UHGV virus genome: UHGV-0130646
Length of the DNA: 18,996 bases
DNA from: a virus
Reading direction: 5' to 3' (one strand)
Shown here: piece by piece, positions 1,871 through 18,996 of the stretch
Numbering within the stretch: the stretch's first letter is position 1
Layout: the number at the start of each line of letters is the position of its first letter
Program-made: the position numbers and the translations under genes
Notes under the pieces: generated by a model
What the model was told of the DNA's origin: nothing
The model's database searches: none
The model's input: the letters and a program-made list of their open reading frames with translations, nothing else

Positions 1871-2010
1871 TAAATATTGTATTGCTTTGATTTTTAATGA
1901 TTTTGTTTAATTCATTTTTTGTGCGTATACCTAATCGTATACCAATGGCTGTAAGTTAATGTGAAATGAAAGCGCATTTTTACTTGGATTGATGCTATAT
2001 CGTACAGGAA

Positions 2011-2310
2011 AAAAATTTTTTTTCGAAAGAACTGTTCACACTGTTCACCTTTCTGTTTTCTCCTTTTATTTCAGAGTGATAGGTGGTGAATAATGGGTGA
2101 AGGGTGAACATTCGATTCTTCACCTCCGGCATTCTGCCGGTGTGACTCATACCGGTGATTAATCCCCCGTACTGAAATCACTCAGGAAGAAAAAAGTTTT
2201 TTTTGATTTGATTGTTCACACTGTTCACCTTTCGTTTTTCTCTTTTAATTTCAGTATGATAACGGGTGAATATACGGTGAAGGGTGAACAGTGGATTGTT
2301 CACCTGCGGG
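2011..2310. repeat. crr-like cis replication region: two ~120-bp direct repeats (period 180 bp) carrying TGTTCACC/GGTGAACA iterons
   Basis: Copy 1 about 2011-2125 and copy 2 about 2191-2305 align nearly base for base. Each holds several TGTTCAC(C/A) or GGTGAA(CA) octamers. Matches the P4 crr architecture bound by alpha. Confidence 0.75.
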
Positions 2311-2320
2311 GGATATCGGG

Positions 2321-2347
2321 ATAAAAAAAGACCGGCAGATGCCGGTC
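2321..2347 (-). terminator. Rho-independent terminator immediately downstream of alpha (minus strand)
   Basis: GACCGGCA / TGCCGGTC inverted repeat (2330-2347) followed on the minus strand by a T7 tract (plus-strand A-run 2323-2329). Lies 17 bp past the alpha stop. Confidence 0.6.
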
Positions 2348-2363
2348 AGGTGGGTCATGAGGG

Positions 2364-4697
2364 TCAGGTTGTTGCAGGGTCGTCACATTTTGGCAGCCAG
2401 TCGCCGTAGCTTTCCTCTTTCAGCGTCAGGTTGGTCTGTATCCCCTGTTTGGTATGGCGCTTCTCGTAATTCAGTCCGTATTCCTTCAGCATCACCGGCA
2501 GCCCCAGCCCGAACATTTTCAGACTGAGTACATTCCGGTAGCCGTTTGCCTCCATGTAGGCCAGATAGGCGTGATAGAGGTATTTACGGTAATTGCGCGG
2601 GATGATACTGGCGTTCCCCATATACATGCCGCTGGTCTGCGGCAGGGTTTCCAGATAGCCGATAAAATCAAACGTCGGGTCGGCATCCCGTTTGATGTTC
2701 AGTGCCTCGTCTGAGTTCTGCTGGGACTGAAGCAGTGACCGGGCGAGCATCGGGTCGCTGAACTTCTGCATCAGGTGACGCACGATGACCGCCAGCTCGC
2801 GGGTGATTTTGTCCTTAAGCTGCGGGTCGCGCTCCTGCGGGGCTATCTGTTCCGGGAAGTGAATAATCACCCGCCGGCGTGACACGCCGCCGCTGCGGTC
2901 GGTGAAGCGCATCGGGTTATTGTTCACGGCCAGAATCACCGCCGGGATGTGCGTGGAGTACGCATCCCGGTATTTCGGGTCCACGGACACCGCATCGCCG
3001 CCGGTGATGGCCTTGAGTCCGGCACCGTCGCCGCTCCATTTTTCCTGGTCCGGCAGGCGTATCAGTGAGAAGCCAGTTAACGCGGCACGTTCACGCGGGG
3101 ATTCCAGCGTCTCGATGGTGGCCGACGTGGCGTTATCCTCCCCGGCCAGCAGGGTGGCTATTTCGGCCATGATACTTTTGCCGCTGCCGCCGGGACCGGT
3201 CACCTCCAGAAAGAGCTGCCAGTCGTAGCGGTTTGCCAGCACCATAAACAGTGCGGCCAGAATCACGTCGCGTTTTTCCGCACGGCCACCGGCGGCACGG
3301 TCAAGCCAGCGCCAGAACGCGGGGGCGTGGGTTTCCAGCGTTTCACCGTCCACCGGCGGGGTGAAATCCACATCACACAGGGTACGCATCCAGTGTGACG
3401 GACTGTGCGGGTGGAACGTGCCGTTCTGCGTGTCGAGCACGCCGTTACGAAAGCCAATCAGGCGGCGGGAGGGGGCTTCCTGCTGCGGAATAATCAGCTT
3501 CAGGGTGTCCACCACGGAGGCCACCTTCCCGGAGGAGAACGGCGCACGCAGCCGCTGAAACAGCCCGGCCACATCCCGGGCAAAGTCCTGTGGTGGCAGC
3601 ACCTTCCAGACACCATTTTCATAACGGGACAGAAGCTGGCCGTTGGCATCGACCGCGAGCGCCTCGCCGTAATGCTCATAGATACGCATGGCCTTTTCAC
3701 TGGTACTCATGGCGGAAAACTCCGCTTCGCTCATGGTGTCGAACGGGCTTTCAGCCGGTGGCCGGATGGCATCGTAAATGGCCTTACGGGTGGCTTCCCC
3801 GCCGTACTGCGTGAAGGCATCATTCCAGTCACCGAAGACCGGCGGCAGGGCAACAACACCTTCACACGCATCTGCGGCTGCGGCGGCTTTTTTCTGGCCG
3901 TCACCGCTGAGGTCACGGTCTGCGGCAAGGACAATCTGACAGGCCGGATGCTTCTGCCGGGCAAGGCTGGCCAGAGAAAGGAGGTTCACGGAAGAAAGCG
4001 CCACCATCACCGTTTCACCGGTCAGGTGATGTACGGTAAGTGCGGTCGCGTATCCCTCCGCTATCCACAGACGTTTTCCGGCCTGATTCTGTCCTTCAAG
4101 GATGTGACAGGTGCCCCTGACCTGCCCGCCTTTCAGGGTGCGCTTACGGCCGTCAGCGCTGATTAACTGAAGGTTAACAAGTTCGCCGCTGTCGTCATAC
4201 AGTGGCACCACAAGGTCACCGGCGCGCCAGCTCACGCCACCGGCTCTGTGTGTGCCGGTCAGCATCCGGCATTCCCGGCCGGGAAAGCCCTTGCGGGTCA
4301 GGTAGGCGTTACCGGTTCCGGTACGGGTTTTCGCCATCAGGGTTTGTGCCAGTGCGGCGGCGTTCTTCCGGGCAGCGTCTGTTTCAGCACCGGCGGCGGC
4401 CGTCACTGCCGGGTCAGCCGGGGGCAGGCTGCCGGTCACGGCAGCCACCTTTGTGGCCGCGTCGGACGGGGAGACACCAAACACCTTTTCAACCAGTTTC
4501 AGGCCGTCACCGGCACCACACTGATTGCAGTACCAGGTGCCGCGCCCCTCCCTGTCATCAAAACGGAAGCGGTCACTCCCGCCACAGACCGGACAGGGCT
4601 GATGACGGTTTTTCAGCACCTGAATCCCCAGCGCCGGGAGGATACGCGGCCAGTGGCCGAGCGCATGGCTGACGGTGGCGGTTACGTTCATTTTCAT
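2364..4697 (-). CDS. alpha: DNA primase-helicase (P4 alpha type)
   Basis: 777-aa ORF, the same length as P4 alpha. N-terminal zinc-binding motif CPVCGG...YCNQCG, a primase/TOPRIM-like middle region, and a C-terminal Walker A motif (GPGGSGKS). Confidence 0.92.
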   Translation of the reverse strand: MKMNVTATVSHALGHWPRILPALGIQVLKNRHQPCPVCGGSDRFRFDDREGRGTWYCNQCGAGDGLKLVEKVFGVSPSDAATKVAAVTGSLPPADPAVTAAAGAETDAARKNAAALAQTLMAKTRTGTGNAYLTRKGFPGRECRMLTGTHRAGGVSWRAGDLVVPLYDDSGELVNLQLISADGRKRTLKGGQVRGTCHILEGQNQAGKRLWIAEGYATALTVHHLTGETVMVALSSVNLLSLASLARQKHPACQIVLAADRDLSGDGQKKAAAAADACEGVVALPPVFGDWNDAFTQYGGEATRKAIYDAIRPPAESPFDTMSEAEFSAMSTSEKAMRIYEHYGEALAVDANGQLLSRYENGVWKVLPPQDFARDVAGLFQRLRAPFSSGKVASVVDTLKLIIPQQEAPSRRLIGFRNGVLDTQNGTFHPHSPSHWMRTLCDVDFTPPVDGETLETHAPAFWRWLDRAAGGRAEKRDVILAALFMVLANRYDWQLFLEVTGPGGSGKSIMAEIATLLAGEDNATSATIETLESPRERAALTGFSLIRLPDQEKWSGDGAGLKAITGGDAVSVDPKYRDAYSTHIPAVILAVNNNPMRFTDRSGGVSRRRVIIHFPEQIAPQERDPQLKDKITRELAVIVRHLMQKFSDPMLARSLLQSQQNSDEALNIKRDADPTFDFIGYLETLPQTSGMYMGNASIIPRNYRKYLYHAYLAYMEANGYRNVLSLKMFGLGLPVMLKEYGLNYEKRHTKQGIQTNLTLKEESYGDWLPKCDDPATT

Positions 4698-4711
4698 GGT
4701 GTTGTTCTCCT

Positions 4712-5032
4712 TCAGTGCAGTACCGGCGCTTTTATGTGACGGGCACAGAGTTCATCCATCACAACCAGCCCGAGAAAGGACAGCGACGGCGCGGCCTTCA
4801 GGGGGCCGGATTCCATTAAATCTTCCAGCAGGGCACAGGCTATCTGACGCCCTTTTTCCTCACCGTGCTGGCGCAGATAAAAGCCTTCCAGCTCAGCGGC
4901 GATGGCCGCCTCCAGTGATTCAAGGGTGAGATGCGGGTAGCGGTGCTGACGTTCGCACACGGTCAGCCAGGCACAGGCGACAGCGCGACGGTAAAGGGCA
5001 GCGCGTAAGACGGGCGGTAAGGGTGTTTTCAT
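4712..5032 (-). CDS. P4 orf106-like hypothetical protein
   Basis: 106-aa ORF immediately upstream of alpha in the same operon, with GGAGG 7 nt upstream of the ATG. Position and length match P4 orf106 as recalled. Confidence 0.65.
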
Positions 5033-5167
5033 TTGCTTTCCTCCCTGTGACAGATGACTGCATTCCGTGCCGGTTGCATTAACTGATAAGGCATATCTGC
5101 GTCTCCTGAAGACGTGCGTATCCCTGCGCGAATACGCACATTTAATTTTTCGGGTGTCGTTTTTTAA

Positions 5168-5623
5168 TTACAGATAATTGCGGTAACTGTTATCCGGGGT
5201 GATTTCCGGGTCAGGCTCCGTGCGGGGAATTTCCCGCCATTCCCGCGCCACCGGTGCTGCCCGGCTGACCGGAACAGGGTCCTGCGGGTAAATATCCAGA
5301 TATTTCTCACGCCATTTCTGTAATTCCGGGTCTCCGGCCATTTCTTTCAGTACCGCATGCCGGTTTACGGGGCTGCGTTTGAACAGGTCAGGACGGTCAC
5401 AGGTAAATTCCCGCAGAAAACGCCCCAGCGGGATGTCTGTGGTGCGCCCGTCAGCGAGGATACGCACAAGGATACTGAATTTACGGCGGTACGGGTTCCA
5501 GACAATGTCCGGGCAGCGGTACGGCATTTCCCACGGAATACCGTCTTCCAGAATGCCGACCACGGCCACATCGGGAAAACCGGCAGAACGGTAAATCTCA
5601 CCGGGCTGGGGAAAATCAAACAT
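5168..5623 (-). CDS. P4 orf151-like hypothetical protein
   Basis: 151-aa ORF in the left operon; its start overlaps the stop of the upstream 95-aa ORF by 8 nt. Position and length match P4 orf151. Confidence 0.65.
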   Translation of the reverse strand: MFDFPQPGEIYRSAGFPDVAVVGILEDGIPWEMPYRCPDIVWNPYRRKFSILVRILADGRTTDIPLGRFLREFTCDRPDLFKRSPVNRHAVLKEMAGDPELQKWREKYLDIYPQDPVPVSRAAPVAREWREIPRTEPDPEITPDNSYRNYL

Positions 5624-5903
5624 GCGTCCTGTCTCCCCGGTCTTTCTGCTGGGCGAGAAAATCGCGGCACAGGCCTTTGGCTTTCAGCTCATTCAGCACA
5701 AAATCAATATCTTCATTCAGGTAACTGAAAATATGCGGAATGTAGAGCTGATGCAGGCCGGAGAGTTCACGGTGAATCAAATCCCCCCCAACAAACCGGG
5801 ATACGGCGCTGGCGCGGTTGAGCTTATGGTAAGCCTCAATGCTGAGGTGTTCACGGGCGTCATGACGCGCTGAGACGGTCTGAGGGGCTTTTTTATTACG
5901 CAC
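5616..5903 (-). CDS. Small left-operon protein, possibly an epsilon-like antirepressor
   Basis: 95-aa ORF translationally coupled to orf151. Assignment to epsilon is positional only; identity is uncertain. Confidence 0.45.
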
Positions 5904-6495
5904 GGGACACCTCCATCACCGGCAGACGGGCAGCAAGGGAGAGCACATAGTCACGGACAAGGGAACGGCGGGCGCTGCGTTCATCACCGGCGACGGTGCG
6001 AAGCATACAGATACGGGGATGACGGTCTGCGCGACGGACAGCCGCAAACACAAAGACAAATTCAGGGTGTGAGGGGGTAAGGGTCGTAGCCATAAGGCAG
6101 CCTCCTTCGAGTAGCAAATAACTGCTATCGCCGGAGTTTCCACGCTCAATGGCGATAGCCCAGACGGGGGTGGAAATACCGGCCTCGAAGAATACCGGCC
6201 AGCCCGGAGGCTGCCCCGCCTGAGCTACCATTGACTCTGCGGCATAATGAGCGGACGCGGGCAGGATGCACGGAATGCCATCTGCACGACTGACCACACA
6301 CCACACCATAATCTGGCGCTCTGTGGCGTTGATTGCGACACAAAAAAAGACGCATGGCGCGTCATATGTCGCCTTCGAGTTACACGGGTTTCCACGCCCG
6401 GCTGCCGATTTTGCGGCAGCGGAAAAACTATATCCGCAAATGCCGGAAAAAGGCAAGCCAGAAAAAGGGACTTTTTGCAGAGCGGGCATCATCAT
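5896..6495 (-). CDS. orf199-like reading frame spanning the immunity region (kil-like N-terminus?); coding status uncertain
   Basis: Three in-frame ATGs (minus-strand ATGATGATG, plus 6487-6495) overlap the vis stop and give a 199-aa frame. In P4 this interval holds kil and the CI RNA immunity determinant, so the long ORF may not be fully translated. Confidence 0.3.
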
Positions 6496-6758
6496 GCGTC
6501 GTACCCCCGTTTGCGTCCGGCAATGCGCCCGGCCATCCATGCGGTGACTTCAGAGTGCAGCCAGGCCACATTTTTACCGCCAAGACTCACCTGCGGCGGA
6601 AATTCCCCCTTACGGATGAGTTCATAGATGGTCGAGCGTGACAGGCCGCACAGGTGCATCACTTCCGGCAGACGTAAAAAACGCTCCTGCGTGATGTCCG
6701 GCAGCGGCATCAGTGGCGTCACAGGGGCGGGAGACGGGGAAGAAAAAACAGCTTGCAT
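6492..6758 (-). CDS. vis: Vis / AlpA-family helix-turn-helix regulator (excisionase-like)
   Basis: 88-aa ORF with an AlpA-type HTH ([44 protein letters not shown]). GAGGT lies 5 nt upstream of the ATG. Confidence 0.8.
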
Positions 6759-6860
6759 CGGGCTACCTCGTTAATGTCCATACAGCACCGGATAAGTCCG
6801 TCCGGCTTCGGGTAGCGCTTTATTTTGTGAATATTTTCAGCAGACGCAACAGGGGGGATT

Positions 6861-6878
6861 TGTTCCGGCAGTCTTACA
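6861..6878 (-). promoter_or_regulatory. TGT-N12-ACA activator (Delta/Ogr-type) site upstream of vis; PLL-like late promoter
   Basis: TGTtccggcagtcttACA, about 100 bp upstream of the vis start codon (6758), the distance expected for a -55-centred activator site on a late promoter with a short leader. Confidence 0.5.
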
Positions 6879-6903
6879 ATGCTTGTGTATTTTTTGTTCA
6901 TCT

Positions 6904-6933
6904 CCACTTAAAGTCATTTAAAGCCACTTAAAG
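6904..6933. repeat. Three tandem 10-bp repeats (CCACTTAAAG / TCATTTAAAG / CCACTTAAAG)
   Basis: Read directly from the sequence. The 10-bp period places the copies on one face of the helix. Located between the PLL-like site and the ori1-like iterons. Confidence 0.6.
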
Positions 6934-7037
6934 CAATTCGTAATTTTTATAGTGAAATACAAATCGTTTTTTCTTATTCATTCCCGGCGAATTAATAAAA
7001 ACAAACAGTAATAAACAGCACAAAAAGTCTATGAGCG

Positions 7038-7142
7038 GGTGAACAGTGGTGAACAGACGGTGAACAGTCATTACTGCGATTGTTCACCCTTTAACTTACT
7101 GTATTACTTATCTTTTTTCTTAAGGTGAACAGAGGTGAACAG
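7038..7142. repeat. ori1-like origin iterons (GGTGAACAG x5 direct, one inverted)
   Basis: GGTGAACAG at 7038, 7048, 7058, 7124 and 7134, plus inverted TGTTCACCC at 7081, within an AT-rich stretch. Same octamer as in the crr repeats. Confidence 0.7.
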
Positions 7143-7220
7143 TAAAATATAAAAAAACAAACAGTAAGCCGGTTTTTCCTGCGACCTTTTCCTGGCTTGC
7201 CGGTCTGAGGATGAGTCTCC

Positions 7221-7276
7221 TGTGTCAGGGCTGGCACATCTGCAATGCGTCGTGTTGTTGTCCGGTGTACGTCACA
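7221..7276 (+). promoter_or_regulatory. Psid-like late promoter with two TGT-N12-ACA activator sites
   Basis: TGTgtcagggctggcACA (7221-7238) and TGTccggtgtacgtcACA (7259-7276), centres 38 bp apart, upstream of the sid start at 7311. Confidence 0.6.
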
Positions 7277-7310
7277 ATTTTCTTAACCTGAAGTGACGAG
7301 GAGCCGGAAA

Positions 7311-8045
7311 ATGTCTGACAACACCATCCCTGAATATCTGCAACCCGCACTGGCACAACTGGAAAAGGCCAGAGCCGCTCATCTTGAGAACGCCCGCCTG
7401 ATGGATGAGACCGTCACGGCCATTGAACGGGCAGAGCAGGAAAAAAATGCGCTGACGCAGGCCGACGGAAACGACGCTGACGACTGGCGCACGGCCTTTC
7501 GTGCAGCCGGTGGTGTCCTGAGCGACGAGCTGAAACAGCGCCACATTGAGCGCGTGGCACGCCGGGAGCTGGTACAGGAATATGACAATCTGGCCGTGGT
7601 GCTGAATTTTGAACGCGAACGCCTGAAAGGGGCGTGTGACAGCACGGCCACCGCCTACCGGAAGGCACATCATCACCTTCTGAGTCTGTATGCAGAGCAT
7701 GAGCTGGAACACGCCCTGAATGAAACCTGTGAGGCGCTTGTCCGGGCAATGCATCTGAGCATTCTGGTACAGGAAAATCCGCTCGCCAACACCACCGGCC
7801 ATCAGGGCTACGTCGCACCGGAAAAGGCTGTCATGCAGCAGGTGAAATCATCGCTGGAACAGAAAATTAAACAGATGCAAATCAGTCTCACCGGCGAGCC
7901 GGTTCTCCGGCTGACCGGACTGTCAGCGGCAACACTCCCGCACATGGATTATGAGGTGGCAGGCACACCGGCACAGCGCAAGGTGTGGCAGGACAAAATA
8001 GACCAGCAGGGTGCAGAGCTTAAGGCCAGAGGACTGCTGTCATGA
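7311..8045 (+). CDS. sid: Capsid size determination protein Sid (external scaffold)
   Basis: 244 aa from the ATG at 7311 (GAGGAG 6 nt upstream); the ORF track's GTG at 7293 is probably not the start. Coiled-coil-rich translation; stop overlaps the delta start. Length matches P4 Sid. Confidence 0.88.
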   Translation: MSDNTIPEYLQPALAQLEKARAAHLENARLMDETVTAIERAEQEKNALTQADGNDADDWRTAFRAAGGVLSDELKQRHIERVARRELVQEYDNLAVVLNFERERLKGACDSTATAYRKAHHHLLSLYAEHELEHALNETCEALVRAMHLSILVQENPLANTTGHQGYVAPEKAVMQQVKSSLEQKIKQMQISLTGEPVLRLTGLSAATLPHMDYEVAGTPAQRKVWQDKIDQQGAELKARGLLS

Positions 8046-8542
8046 TTTACTGCCCGTCGTGTGGACATGTTGCTCACACCCGTCGCGCACATTTCATGGA
8101 CGATGGCACCAAGATAATGATTGCACAGTGCCGGAATATTTATTGCTCTGCGACATTTGAAGCGAGTGAAAGCTTTTTCTCTGACTGTAAAGATTCAGGA
8201 ATGGAATACATTTCAGGCAAACAGAGATACCGCGATTCACTGACTTCTGCCTCCGGCAGTATGAAACGCCCGAAAAGAATGCTTGTTACCGGATATTGTT
8301 GTCGGAGATGTAAAGGCCTTGCACTGTCAAGAACATCGCGGCGTCTGTCTCAGGAAGTCACCGAACGTTTTTATGTGTGCACGGATCCGGGCTGTGGTCT
8401 GGTGTTTAAAACGCTTCAGACCATCAACCGCTTCATTGTCCGCCCGGTCACACCGGACGAACTGGCAGAACACCTGCATGAAAAACAGGAACTGCCGCCA
8501 GTACGGTTAAAAACACAATCATATTCGCTGCGTCTGGAATGA
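8042..8542 (+). CDS. delta: Late-gene transcriptional activator Delta (tandem Ogr-type zinc finger)
   Basis: 166 aa with two Ogr-like Cys4 halves (CPSCG...C..YC and CCRRC...CTDPGC). Length matches P4 Delta. Confidence 0.88.
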   Translation: MIYCPSCGHVAHTRRAHFMDDGTKIMIAQCRNIYCSATFEASESFFSDCKDSGMEYISGKQRYRDSLTSASGSMKRPKRMLVTGYCCRRCKGLALSRTSRRLSQEVTERFYVCTDPGCGLVFKTLQTINRFIVRPVTPDELAEHLHEKQELPPVRLKTQSYSLRLE

Positions 8543-8615
8543 GGGCTGCCGGTTAACACCGGCCGTCGCCGCACACCGTATTTTTATTCTTCAGCATGAT
8601 GAGAAAGAGATAACG

Positions 8616-9188
8616 ATGGAAAGCACAGCCTTACAGCAGGCCTTTGACACCTGTCAGAATAACAAAGCAGCATGGCTGCAACACAAAAATGAGCTGGCAG
8701 CGGCCGAACAGGAATACCTGCGGCTTCTGTCAGGAGAAGGCAGAAACGTCAGTCGCCTGGACGAATTACGCAATATTATCGAAGTCAGAAAATGGCAGGT
8801 GAATCAGGCCGCCAGTCGTTATATTCGTTCGCATGAAGCCGTTCAGCACATCAGCATCCGCGACCGGCTGAATGATTTTATGCAGCAGCACGGCACAGCA
8901 CTGGCGGCGGCACTGGCACCGGAGCTGATGGGCTACAGTGAGCTGACGGCCATTGCCCGAAACTGTGCCATACAGCGTGCCACAGATGCCCTGCGTGAAG
9001 CCCTTCTGTCCTGGCTTGCGAAGGGGGAAAAAATTAATTATTCCGCACAGGATAGCGACATTTTAACGACCATCGGATTCAGGCCTGACGCGGCTTCGGT
9101 GGATGACAGCCGTGAAAAATTCACCCCTGCGCAGAACATGATTTTTTCGCGTAAAAGTGCGCAACTGGCATCACATCAGTCTGTGTAA
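8616..9188 (+). CDS. psu: Polarity suppression / capsid decoration protein Psu
   Basis: 190 aa; N-terminus MESTALQQAFDTCQNNKAAWLQ matches my recollection of P4 Psu. Last gene before cos. Confidence 0.88.
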   Translation: MESTALQQAFDTCQNNKAAWLQHKNELAAAEQEYLRLLSGEGRNVSRLDELRNIIEVRKWQVNQAASRYIRSHEAVQHISIRDRLNDFMQQHGTALAAALAPELMGYSELTAIARNCAIQRATDALREALLSWLAKGEKINYSAQDSDILTTIGFRPDAASVDDSREKFTPAQNMIFSRKSAQLASHQSV

Positions 9189-9230
9189 AATTCCCCGAAA
9201 ATCCGCCCGTTTTTACTGAAAAAAGCCATG

Positions 9231-9265
9231 CATCGATAAGGTGCATGGCTTTGCATGCGTTTTCC
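9231..9265 (+). terminator. Rho-independent terminator downstream of psu
   Basis: GCCATGCA (9235-9242), 9-nt loop, TGCATGGC (9252-9259), followed by TTTGCATGCGTTTT. Confidence 0.55.
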
Positions 9266-9352
9266 TGCCTCATTTTCTGCAGACCGCGCCATTCCCGGCG
9301 CGGCCTGAGCGTGTCAGTGCAACTGCATTGAAACCGCCCCGCAAAGCGGGCG

Positions 9353-9371
9353 GGCGAGGCGGGGAAAGCAC
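9353..9371. other. cos site: 19-nt P2/P4 cohesive-end sequence
   Basis: GGCGAGGCGGGGAAAGCAC matches the P2/P4 cohesive end as I recall it. It is uninterrupted, so this is a cos junction and not a mature genome end. Confidence 0.8.
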
Positions 9372-9502
9372 TGCGCGCTGGCGGTGGTGCTGATTTTATT
9401 TTTTAGCGTCTCAGCGCGTCGTGATGGCGTTTAGATTGTGCGCCGGGGCGTTGGTGTGTCTGCGGGCTGTTTTGTGCGGTGGTGAGCGTGTGAGGGCGTG
9501 AT

Positions 9503-9524
9503 GACGGGGTGTAAAAAAGCCGCC
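9503..9524 (-). terminator. Rho-independent terminator downstream of Q (minus strand)
   Basis: GCCGCC / GGCGGC stem (9509-9524) followed on the minus strand by T6 (plus-strand A-run 9503-9508). Confidence 0.5.
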
Positions 9525-9539
9525 CGCAGGCGGCGATGT

Positions 9540-10574
9540 TCAGCCGTTGTCAGTGTCCAGTGAGTAGTTTTTAAAGCGGATGACCTCCTGACCGAGCCAG
9601 CCGTTTATTTCCCGAATCCTGTCCTGTAACGGGATAAGCTCATTGCGGACAAAGACCTTTGCCACTTTCTCAATATCGCCCAGCGACCCGACGTTCTCCG
9701 GCTTGCCGCCCATCAACTGAAAGGGGATGCGGTGCGCGTCCAGCAGGTCTGCGGCACTGGCTTTTTTGATATTAAAAAAATCGTCCTTCGTCGCCACTTC
9801 ACTGAGCGGGATAATTTTGATGCCGTCTGGCTTTCCCTGTGGTGCATAGAGAAACAGATTATTAAAGTTATTGCGTCCTTTCGACCTGGCCATGTTTTCG
9901 CGAAGTGAGTCAATGTAATCGCGATCCTGCAATGCGTCAGTGATATACATGATATATCCGGCATGTGCGCCGTTTTCGTAATACTTGCGGCGGAACAGCG
10001 TGGCCGACTCATTCAGCCAGGCGGAGTTAAGGGCGCTGAGATATTCCGGCAGGCCGTACAGCTCCTGATTAATATCAGGCTCCAGCAGGTGAAACACGGA
10101 GCCGGGCGCGAAGGCTGTCGGCTCGTTGAAGGACGGCACCCACCAGTAAACATCCTCTTCCACGCCACGACGGGTATATTTTGCCGGTGAGGTTTCCAGT
10201 CTGATGATCTTACCGGTAGTGCTGTAACGCTTTTCCAGAAACGCATTACCGAACACCAGAAAATCCAGCACAAAGCGGCTGAAATCCTGCTGGGAAAGCC
10301 ACGGGTGCGGGATAAACGTTGAGGCCAGAATATTACGTTTGACGTAAATCGGTGAGCTGTGATGCACGGCAGCACGCAGGCTTTTTGCCAGACCGGTAAA
10401 GCTGATTGGTGGCTCATACCATCTGCCGTTACTGATGCACTCGACATAATCCAGAATGTCACGGCGGTCGAGTACCGGCACCGGCTCACCAAAGGTGAAT
10501 GCCGCCATTTTCGGGGCGCTGGCGGTCATTTTTTTTGCCGCAGGTTGCGGTGTTTTCCCTTTTTTCTTGCTCAT
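9540..10574 (-). CDS. Q: Portal protein (P2 gpQ type)
   Basis: 344 aa, same length as P2 Q, with a lysine-rich N-terminus. Start overlaps the P stop in a TGATG arrangement. Confidence 0.9.
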   Translation of the reverse strand: MSKKKGKTPQPAAKKMTASAPKMAAFTFGEPVPVLDRRDILDYVECISNGRWYEPPISFTGLAKSLRAAVHHSSPIYVKRNILASTFIPHPWLSQQDFSRFVLDFLVFGNAFLEKRYSTTGKIIRLETSPAKYTRRGVEEDVYWWVPSFNEPTAFAPGSVFHLLEPDINQELYGLPEYLSALNSAWLNESATLFRRKYYENGAHAGYIMYITDALQDRDYIDSLRENMARSKGRNNFNNLFLYAPQGKPDGIKIIPLSEVATKDDFFNIKKASAADLLDAHRIPFQLMGGKPENVGSLGDIEKVAKVFVRNELIPLQDRIREINGWLGQEVIRFKNYSLDTDNG

Positions 10575-12346
10575 CAGTAAAACTCCAGAATGGTGGATGT
10601 CAGCGGGGTGCTGATACCGGCGGTGAGTGGCTCATTTAACAGGGCGTGCATGGTCGCCCAGGCGAGGTCGGCGTGGCTGGCTTCCTCGCTGCGGCTGGCC
10701 TCATAGGTGGCGCTGCGCCCGCTGCTGGTCATGGTCTTGCGGATAGCCATAAACGAGCTGGTGATGTCGGTGGCGCTGACGTCGTATTCCAGACAGCCAC
10801 GGCGGATAACGTCTTTTGCCTTGAGCACCATTGCGGTTTTCATTTCCGGCGTGTAGCGGATGTCGCGCGCGGCGGGATAGAACGAGCGCACGAGCTGGAA
10901 CACGCCGACACCGAGGCCGGTGGCATCAATACCGATGTATTCGACGTTGTATTTTTCGGTGAGTTTGCGGATGGATTCAGCCTGGGTGGCAAAGTCCATG
11001 CCTTTCCACTGGTGACGCTCAAGTATTCTGAATTTGCCACCGGCCACCACCGGCGGTGCCAGCACCACGCATCCGGCGCTGTCGCCACGGTGTGACGGGT
11101 CGTAACCAATCCATACCGGGCGGGAGCCGAACGGATTCGCGGCAAACGGCGCATAGTCTTCCCATTCTTCCAGCGTGTCGACCATGCAGCGTTGCAGCTC
11201 CTCGAACGGGAACACCGACGCCTTGTCGTCAACAAATTCACACATGAACAGGTTTTTAAAATCGTCGGCGCTGTTTTCGCGTTTAAGCTGCTCAATGTCG
11301 AACAGCGTGCAGCCGCCTTTCAGGGCGTCCTCAATGGTGACAATCTGCCGCCACTGGCCGTCCGCACAGAGAAGCCCACCGGCAAGGGCGTTATGACTGA
11401 CGTCGATTTCCACGCGTTCGGCGGCGCTGGCGCGTCCCCGGTTGAACAGTTCACCCGACCAGAACGGATAGGCGTCGTGCGCCAGCGTGGACGGGGTGGA
11501 GAAATAGGTCGAGCGCAGGTGACTCTGTGAGGCCATACCTGATGCCACCTTACGCAGTACCTGAAAATTCGGGATCCAGAAAATCTCATCGACGTACAGG
11601 TCGCCGTTATGGCTCTGCGCGGTGTTGGAGTTGGTGCCGAGAAAAATCAGTTTTGCGCCGTTATTGCCCAGGACAATCGGGTCACCGGTCAGGTCAACGT
11701 CAACCAGCCGGGCAAAGGCGATGATGTATTCGCGGAACACATACGCCTGCGTTTTACTGGCCGACAGAAAAATCTGGTTATGACCGGTTTTCAGGGCGCG
11801 CAGCAGCGCCTCGCGGGAAAAATAAAACGTCGCGCCAATCTGGCGGGATTTCAGGATATCGCGGATACGGTGCTCAAGCCCGGCGCGATACCAGTGCAAC
11901 TGATATTCGAAAGACTGCTCAAAGAAAATCTGCTCCAGCTTTTCGATAGCCTCGTCACTGAAAAAATTCTTTTTCGGTTTGCGACGCCCGCCTTTGTTGC
12001 GGTTAGCGACGTTCGGATTAAGGTCTGCCTCGTTGCCGGTCTGACTGTAGCGGTTGACCCGCGCCAGCCGTTCAATCTGGCGTCCCAGCAGGTCAATTTC
12101 CTTGAAGTCACCGCCGGTTTTCTGCGGTTTGATGATGAGCTGGGTCAGCCGCGCTTCCAGACTCATTTCGACACGGCTGATGGGGGCAACGCTGTCCCAG
12201 CCGTCGCGCTGTTTCCAGCTCTGCACCGTCGGGCGTTTCATCTGCAACATGGCGGCAATCTGCGGCACGGAAAATCCCTGCCAGTACAGCAGCGCCGCCT
12301 GACGACGCGGGTCGTGTAAAAGAGTGGTGTCTGTGGTGATGGTCAT
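10574..12346 (-). CDS. P: Terminase large (ATPase) subunit (P2 gpP type)
   Basis: 590 aa from the internal ATG at 12346 (MTITTDTTLL..., GAGGT upstream), matching P2 P; the ORF track's 600-aa start is probably too far upstream. Confidence 0.9.
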   Translation of the reverse strand: MTITTDTTLLHDPRRQAALLYWQGFSVPQIAAMLQMKRPTVQSWKQRDGWDSVAPISRVEMSLEARLTQLIIKPQKTGGDFKEIDLLGRQIERLARVNRYSQTGNEADLNPNVANRNKGGRRKPKKNFFSDEAIEKLEQIFFEQSFEYQLHWYRAGLEHRIRDILKSRQIGATFYFSREALLRALKTGHNQIFLSASKTQAYVFREYIIAFARLVDVDLTGDPIVLGNNGAKLIFLGTNSNTAQSHNGDLYVDEIFWIPNFQVLRKVASGMASQSHLRSTYFSTPSTLAHDAYPFWSGELFNRGRASAAERVEIDVSHNALAGGLLCADGQWRQIVTIEDALKGGCTLFDIEQLKRENSADDFKNLFMCEFVDDKASVFPFEELQRCMVDTLEEWEDYAPFAANPFGSRPVWIGYDPSHRGDSAGCVVLAPPVVAGGKFRILERHQWKGMDFATQAESIRKLTEKYNVEYIGIDATGLGVGVFQLVRSFYPAARDIRYTPEMKTAMVLKAKDVIRRGCLEYDVSATDITSSFMAIRKTMTSSGRSATYEASRSEEASHADLAWATMHALLNEPLTAGISTPLTSTILEFY

Positions 12347-18720: not shown

Positions 18721-18754
18721 TTTTATCCAGGCAGAGGCTGATGCGCAATTAAAC

Positions 18755-18783
18755 ATTGAGCGGCCATGCTGGTCGCTCAATGT
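18755..18783. terminator. 9-bp perfect hairpin between S and a convergent minus-strand ORF; probable bidirectional terminator
   Basis: CATTGAGCG (18755-18763), 11-nt loop, CGCTCAATG (18775-18783), flanked by T-rich sequence on both strands. Confidence 0.5.
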
Positions 18784-18791
18784 TTAGAGGC

Positions 18792-18996
18792 TTATGAGTG
18801 ATTTTTATTTGATGCTTTGTATTCTACAACCTTCTTATTGGCGTAAAGGAATTTTGTATATGACAGAAATATAACCAGGCCTGAAATGAAATAGATGAGG
18901 GATATTATTAATAATGCTTTTTTTTGGCTGTTATTATCTTTAATTTCCTGACTTAACCATTCCGAGTCCTCCTCGTTTAGCCGTAAGAGCTTATTG
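18792..18996 (-). CDS. Hypothetical small membrane protein, 5'-truncated at the window edge; AT-rich ORF at the S-V variable position
   Basis: Minus-strand frame is open from the window edge to the stop at 18792-18794 (67 codons in window: ...SQKKALLIISLIYFISGLVIFLSYTKFLYANKK...), with one predicted TM helix. Not in the ORF track because no start codon lies within the window. Confidence 0.45.
   Translation of the reverse strand, partial: NKLLRLNEEDSEWLSQEIKDNNSQKKALLIISLIYFISGLVIFLSYTKFLYANKKVVEYKASNKNHS

Follow-up and report, generated by a model that had tools for sequence, protein, structure and literature searches.

Three regions of P2-like phage genomes have been described as variable, and the orf30 region is one of them (PMC3091744, citing Nilsson et al.; PMC6823313); in phage R18C, a different ORF occupies the orf30 position (PMC6823313). 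The two other variable regions of P2 carry the anti-phage genes old, tin, and fun (PMC9122126; PMC9519451). In P2 itself, features follow one another in the order gene S, a terminator, orf30 (on the opposite strand and labeled “nonessential”), a binding site for the activator of the V promoter, and gene V. The orf30 product is recorded as a “putative 30.4 kDa protein” (AAD03281.1, phrog_2407), and neither orf30 nor the slot between S and V (hereafter the S–V slot) is mentioned in the accessible literature on P2 defense hotspots. Here we examine this slot starting from a single window, i.e., the whole 18,996-nt stretch of viral genome UHGV-0130646, which ends just after gene S and within the gene that follows it (Table 1).

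Table 1. [quoted passage not shown]
Feature	Position	Strand	Basis
Gene S, tail completion / virion morphogenesis protein, 150 aa	18268..18720	+	ORF list; P2 counterpart annotated gpS; RefSeq homologue “phage virion morphogenesis protein”
Spacer between convergent genes S and orf30, 71 nt	18721..18791		First 70 of 71 bases identical to P2
Hairpin, 17-nt arms (18750-18766 and 18770-18786), 3-nt loop, 94% complementarity	18750..18786		Inverted-repeat search
orf30, 3' part: TAA at 18792-18794, codons for residues 195-261 of 261	18792..18996	-	Translation; 94.9% nucleotide identity to P2 orf30
Predicted transmembrane helix 3 of Orf30, residues 221-239	18861..18917	-	Hydropathy scan; within AlphaFold long helix 202-260

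The window ends in an allele of P2 orf30

The last 276 bases of the window were 94.9% identical to positions 9368-9643 of the P2 genome (AF063097), a segment annotated as orf30 plus a terminator. They matched 21 phage records, including Peduovirus P24A7b at 99.3% identity, and 60 of the 67 visible residues equal those at the C-terminus of P2 Orf30. The window copy and P2 orf30 are thus alike in being the same gene, in their convergent layout with S, and in a near-identical hairpin, and they differ in 7 of these 67 residues, with only the last 67 codons lying inside the window. We are close to certain that 18792-18996 on the minus strand is the last third of P2 orf30, in an allelic variant cut by the window edge, and that 18750-18786 is the terminator annotated in P2. 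A first-pass annotation, made from the sequence letters, had noted that P2 carries a non-essential and compositionally atypical gene at this position, which agrees with the P2 record (“nonessential”, GC 0.34). It had also held that 67 codons could not decide whether the content here was orf30-like; the DNA and residue identities decide it as orf30, and the comparison with P2 returned the outcome which that annotation had named in advance as counting against its own reading, namely that the full ORF is simply P2 orf30. Both orf30 and its terminator are already known, and in this respect the finding is ordinary.

The same 276 bases were found with 100% identity in Escherichia coli DETEC-P881, in which an intact 261-aa “hypothetical protein” is followed by baseplate gene V. 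This DETEC-P881 copy is 84% identical to P2 Orf30 over 261 aa, with the N-terminal helix as the most divergent part, and it matches phrog_2407 over its full length (1-261 of 261, E 6e-143). Gene V begins ~84 nt beyond the orf30 start in DETEC-P881, in P2, and in 26 further loci; the window displays the S side and the convergent orientation of this arrangement, with V lying past its edge. Upstream, 3 kb of DETEC-P881 sequence showed 54 mismatches to the window, and the best complete E. coli genomes reached 98.7% identity over 4 kb. Across 5426 complete E. coli genomes, 464 (about 9%) carried a match to the 276 bases at ≥90% identity, one of them at 100%, and the match spanned ≥80% of the 276 bases in 463 of these 464. 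Since the window comes without the first 194 codons, we judge the intactness of this particular copy from its relatives. The copy itself matters little: it is truncated, and the P2 reference and ~9% of complete E. coli genomes carry the gene as well.

Composition and selection on the open frame

Base composition steps down along the end of the window, from a GC content of 0.543 in S to 0.493 in the spacer and 0.322 beyond it; put differently, the late-gene region has an overall GC of 0.57 vs 0.32 in the orf30 part. The first-pass annotation had described a switch to AT-rich sequence immediately after the S stop codon: the drop exists, but its onset coincides with the stop codon of the ORF, ~70 nt past that of S. 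The minus-strand frame that it had reported as open to the window edge and converging on S is present where it had been placed, running from 18995 through 67 codons to a TAA stop, and the remaining two minus-strand frames contain many stops. When the 276 bases were shuffled by mononucleotide, 13% of the shuffles also had a frame that stayed free of stops for ≥67 codons. The open run is therefore within chance, and gene status rests on homology rather than on length.

We compared 28 loci carrying orf30, which included 22 distinct alleles, all of them intact at 261 aa, with a pairwise dN/dS of ~0.4. Between P2 and DETEC-P881, dN/dS was ~0.2 in the two loops of the protein and ~1.2 in the N-terminal tail plus helix 1 (codons 1-30, L001 vs L002). 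At the level of sequence divergence, these ratios show orf30 to be a maintained gene under purifying selection, with fast evolution localized at its N-terminal end. In E. coli B REL606, a defective P2-like prophage (L097, NC_012967 2108700-2113975) has kept orf30, V, W, and J intact; next to them, S and the portal gene are both pseudogenes, truncated and fused beside an AAA-ATPase gene.

This bears on the reading of the window copy as a truncated or decaying remnant, or as a chance frame, in either case encoding nothing functional. Such a reading could draw on the small number of codons visible, on the share of shuffles that are open for as long, and on the unusual P4–P2 junction in the window, which is absent from complete genomes (see the last section). 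However, the 276 bases are fully identical to those of a genome with an intact gene, the gene is intact with dN/dS ~0.4 in every one of the 28 loci, and nearly all E. coli matches (463 of 464) cover ≥80% of the segment, so that we regard a remnant or chance frame as scarcely credible.

A conserved hairpin separates the convergent genes

The spacer and its hairpin differ from P2 in one base only, located beside the orf30 stop codon. The first-pass annotation had noted a 9-bp hairpin shared between S and the converging frame; this hairpin exists, but it is longer than claimed, the 9 bp being the G+C-rich core of 17-nt arms. Its predicted folding energy was -29.4 kcal/mol on the plus strand (z -6.4) and -22.9 on the minus strand (z -5.3), and none of 200 shuffles folded as well. 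It lies 29 nt past the S stop codon and 5 nt past that of orf30, and is an exact match to the “putative rho-independent terminator for O operon” annotated in P2 (9397-9433). It was kept in all 28 orf30 loci, with a few substitutions at most, at or beside the loop.

A stable, G+C-rich stem thus follows both convergent stop codons, as expected for the stem-loop of a rho-independent terminator. The U-run is short and interrupted on both strands, with outer stem arms TAAACATT and AATGTTTA, and a simple consensus terminator scan did not call the hairpin because the T-run is weak. Rfam searches returned only generic hairpin matches, far under threshold. Overall, the hairpin is likely a bidirectional terminator, serving the O operon on the plus strand and orf30 on the minus strand; the P2 annotation lists it as putative.

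The S–V slot alternates between empty and single-gene states

Gene S provides the conserved left flank of the slot, and we used its product to collect the same position from relatives. The resulting set comprised 85 loci: 80 from IMG/VR and 3 from genomes (gpS ~98-99% identical to that of the window in these 83), the locus of P2 itself, and L003, which belongs to a P2-like prophage at greater distance and was included via its Orf30 relative. A gpS search of GTDB genomes yielded only 3 loci. The slot was empty in 48 of the 85 loci, where S and V are separated by a 69-nt G+C-rich spacer with a hairpin of its own, and held orf30 in 28. The other loci carried a very distant orf30 relative (1 locus), an unrelated 268-aa gene (2 loci, L035 and L045), an unrelated 357-aa gene with membrane helices (4 loci, L028, L034, L047, and L051), a 366-aa gene with a RelA_SpoT domain (1 locus, L007), or an aberrant 253-nt gap that probably reflects a frameshift in V (1 locus). 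All cargos were single genes, antisense to S and V, with a GC content of 0.33-0.36. The earlier suggestion that the S–V locus is an insertion point is hence borne out by the predominance of empty and orf30-bearing slots and by the other antisense, AT-rich cargos found in the rest.

The RelA_SpoT cargo (Escherichia sp. MOD1-EC7003, 4451-5760 of the locus) matched the Pfam RelA_SpoT family with an E-value of 1.8e-21 and the PADLOC candidate PDC-S33 with an E-value of 3.3e-16; judging from these matches, it is possibly a defense gene of the small-alarmone-synthetase type. Neither the 268-aa nor the 357-aa cargo had a match in Pfam or PADLOC. Hydrophobic helices of the 357-aa cargo lie near its C-terminal third.

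The ends of the cassettes were examined next to the empty state. Empty-slot spacers part from the orf30-type spacer 5 nt from where the S stop codon starts, and the orf30 cassette replaces the entire stretch from S stop to V start, the late-promoter region of V included. The 71-nt spacer of the window belongs to the orf30 cassette and shares no homology with the 69-nt spacer that separates S and V in empty slots. The empty-site spacer begins with TAGTTGTGCCATTCCCGACACCTCATCG, and the locus with the RelA_SpoT gene retains this whole 28-nt stretch upstream of its cargo. In L035, only the first ~13 bases of the 28-nt stretch are retained exactly. At the other side, L003 retains the final ~15 nt of the empty site (GGCGGCATCCTTCCC). 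What is left of the spacer differs among L007, L035, L003, and the orf30 loci, which indicates that junctions differ between cassettes. Short repeated sequences of the promoter region may mediate cassette exchange.

Compared with the established hotspots of P2-like phages (tin/old between gpA and the portal gene, and Z/fun), the S–V slot is similar in that it is short, has conserved flanks, and alternates between unrelated AT-rich cargos. As in those hotspots, one of the alternative cargos is a defense candidate, here the RelA_SpoT protein. Unlike those hotspots, it holds one gene or none, always in antisense, and one family dominates our sample rather than hundreds of arrangements; anti-phage activity is, also unlike for those hotspots, not reported for it in the accessible literature.

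Orf30 is a predicted three-helix membrane protein

The first-pass annotation had proposed a small membrane protein, with one transmembrane helix in the fragment. The fragment in the window does contain a single hydrophobic segment, the 19-residue ALLIISLIYFISGLVIFLS corresponding to residues 221-239 (Kyte-Doolittle 2.58), but three helices are predicted by hydropathy scan in the full-length protein (residues ~11-29, 109-127, and 221-239), and with 261 aa this protein is not especially small. Helix 1 is followed by a loop of ~80 residues (loop 1), which holds the most conserved motif of the family, D-x-Q-L-F-(K/R)-x-x-N-G-I-N-V...D-A. Between helices 2 and 3 lies an alpha/beta domain of ~90 residues (loop 2) with two near-invariant cysteines, C177 and C194. 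After helix 3 comes the C-terminal tail, which is rich in Lys (window 18795-18860).

Charge was averaged over 24 family members. The N-terminal tail has no K or R and a net charge of -1.5, the flanks of loop 1 have net charges of +2.3 and +1.8, those of loop 2 are roughly neutral, and the C-terminal tail has a net charge of +2.5. This K+R bias, together with the confinement of the cysteine pair to loop 2, leads to a predicted N-out/C-in topology under the positive-inside rule. Specifically, loop 1 is predicted to be helical and cytoplasmic, loop 2 to form an alpha/beta domain that is periplasmic and disulfide-bonded, and the Lys-rich tail to be cytoplasmic.

An AlphaFold model built from a 24-sequence alignment reached a pLDDT of 83.7 and a pTM of 0.74, and displayed a long helix spanning residues 202-260; a model built from 4 close sequences had a pLDDT of 51 and was unusable. 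Foldseek comparison of the Orf30 model with the PDB and BFVD gave no match below E 0.3, and an HMM search of PDB sequences returned noise only. Homology to CorA/Mrs2/ZntB was considered and rejected: identity was 5-9% over ~120 aligned residues, and long helices inflate the Z-score in such comparisons. Orf30 also lacks the GMN motif of CorA, and its helices differ in number and order from CorA, which has two at the C-terminal end. In addition, the alpha/beta domain is cytoplasmic in CorA and predicted to be on the opposite, periplasmic side of the membrane in Orf30.

A divergent family largely tied to one position

A word-indexed search of 5.8 billion proteins retrieved only 4 clusters, all of 261 aa and ≥75% identical, and a second profile round added little. 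Given this small yield, an exhaustive search was needed to reach the family: HMMER applied to 1.84 billion representatives returned 42 relatives, of which many span the full length (250-271 aa) with 17-32% identity. All 24 aligned members matched phrog_2407, for which a function is not given. Nine of these 24 also matched Pfam PF19723 (DUF6216, function likewise not given), at E-values up to 0.1. P0024 alone passed the gathering threshold of DUF6216, scoring 28.9 bits vs 27.3 in a full-length match to the 270-position profile, and Orf30 and its close alleles gave no reportable DUF6216 score and fall short of that threshold. Orf30 is thus alike to DUF6216 in its length and through the full-length match of P0024, and unlike it in the score of Orf30 itself; on these profile scores, the relation between the two is remote and transitive. 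Among Pfam families of known function Orf30 had no match, and NCBIfam returned noise only. In PADLOC-DB 2.0, no match was found at E≤1 for P2 Orf30 or the E. coli copy, nor at E≤0.01 for the relatives P0043, P0024, and P0006.

The genomic context of the relatives was informative. P0043, P0024, P0006, and P0025, which are 18-32% identical to Orf30, all occupy the antisense S–V slot of other P2-like prophages, and one further family member sits in the portal-adjacent classical defense hotspot. Wherever genomic context was readable, the family is confined to P2-like prophages, and mostly to one position. In a prophage remnant (L096, 2551-4259), tandem Orf30 paralogues of ~256-273 aa and 252 aa adjoin baseplate gene V. 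On short metagenomic contigs (L091, 66-1743), the relative P0017 is divergently oriented from a DsbA/thioredoxin-like gene, a neighborhood that fits a reading of the conserved cysteine pair as a periplasmic disulfide.

Candidate functions of Orf30

What we propose is that orf30 would form an accessory “moron” cassette, equipped with a terminator of its own and transcribed apart from the late genes and probably in the lysogen, and that Orf30 in the inner membrane would guard the lysogen from other phages. The likeliest mode would be superinfection exclusion, in which the variable periplasmic and membrane parts of the protein would hinder DNA entry at the inner membrane. This defense reading is favored because 48 of 85 close relatives have an empty slot and the cargos that take the place of orf30 are lone, AT-rich genes in antisense, including one with a RelA_SpoT domain; it is favored also because one family member lies in the portal hotspot and because the other variable regions of P2 carry old, tin, and fun. 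In the P2 reference record, the searched databases, and the accessible literature, we found no experiment or annotation that assigns an exclusion or defense function to Orf30. In the 84-nt spacer between orf30 and V, no convincing sigma-70 promoter was seen upstream of the orf30 start, so that expression in the lysogen is an assumption of this model.

We take P22 SieA, T4 Imm, and HK97 gp15 to be inner-membrane superinfection-exclusion proteins of prophages and name them as analogues. The likeness is that of small inner-membrane proteins with several membrane passes, each the product of an accessory gene of a prophage, and serves as a working analogy rather than as a comparison of sequences or structures.

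Overall, we consider the full explanation, i.e., the identity of the gene, the description of its protein, and the proposed mechanism, to be probable. The specific claim that orf30 encodes a lysogen-expressed inner-membrane protein protecting against other phages, with superinfection exclusion as the simplest mode, is put forward tentatively, as a reading that may well turn out otherwise. The position of the most conserved residues is relevant here: they fall in the predicted cytoplasmic loop, and a sensor or partner-binding role therefore fits at least as well as a periplasmic block.

Such a role would suit an abortive-infection effector, in which the cytoplasmic loop would sense infection and the helices would oligomerize into a pore or channel, collapsing the membrane potential and killing the cell. 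The conserved loop and a channel-like resemblance speak for this possibility. However, the resemblance to CorA is weak (5-9% identity, no GMN motif), Foldseek found nothing, PADLOC gave no match, and the alpha/beta domain, cytoplasmic in CorA, is predicted to face the periplasm in Orf30, which makes abortive infection an unlikely account.

Location also lends itself to a role in the phage cycle itself, e.g., in the timing of lysis, in assembly of the tail or baseplate, or in interplay with satellite P4: orf30 stands between the lysis/tail-completion and baseplate operons, its product is a membrane protein as lysis proteins are, and the family occurs in P2-like phages wherever context is readable, mostly at one position. 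Yet the gene is antisense to both late operons and annotated as non-essential in P2, it is missing from the 48 phages whose slot is empty and whose S is ~98-99% identical, its GC of 0.32 vs 0.57 marks it as foreign, and it has remained intact in the defective E. coli B remnant that lost S and the portal gene. We therefore hold a phage-cycle function to be very improbable.

Protection from other phages would, finally, not be involved if Orf30 were a lysogenic-conversion factor acting on the host envelope, e.g., through resistance to stress, serum, or colicins or through envelope modification. A prophage-borne, AT-rich gene for an inner-membrane protein with a predicted disulfide-type periplasmic domain would be compatible with this, as would the DsbA-like neighbor of one family member and the presence of the gene in 464 of the 5426 complete E. 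coli genomes. On the other hand, Orf30 lacks an enzymatic domain and does not resemble known conversion genes, and the dN/dS of ~1.2 at the N-terminal helix, together with the strong divergence of the family, points to an arms race rather than to a housekeeping envelope function. Conversion thus appears distinctly unlikely.

Returning to protection against other phages, a broader version of this reading would make the S–V junction a third single-gene anti-phage slot of P2-like phages, and Orf30, with its phrog_2407 and DUF6216-like relatives, a fast-diversifying family of inner-membrane exclusion or abortive-infection proteins whose fold is unlike solved structures. We offer this broader version with still more reserve, as a possibility short of an even chance; if true, it would give a function to a P2 gene so far without an assigned one. 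Beyond the window copy, what retains value is a maintained three-helix membrane protein that occupies the same slot down to 18% identity and alternates there with an empty site and a defense-like cargo, which makes orf30 an inexpensive and clearly delimited target for assays of exclusion or defense.

A P4–P2 junction in the wider window

Further from the slot, in region 2010-9372, the window at 2010-9352 is 98.2% identical to positions 4291-11624 of satellite phage P4 and reaches the right end of P4. This P4-like part runs straight into a P2-type cohesive-end sequence, GGCGAGGCGGGGAAAGCAC, after which a P2-like left arm begins (Q, P, O, N...). Matches to window positions 8900-9800 were present in 2280 complete E. 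coli genomes; none of these genomes spanned the junction, and the best match covered 60%. With no complete genome spanning the junction, the window looks like a P4 right arm and a P2 left arm joined at cos. This could result from cos-end joining, from an assembly chimera of a mixed lysate, or from concatenation, and is not a normal prophage arrangement. Positions 1-2010 lie outside the best match to the P4 reference and include a 399-aa ORF on the minus strand (464-1663); here, the P4-like element presumably has a divergent integrase or att-side segment.
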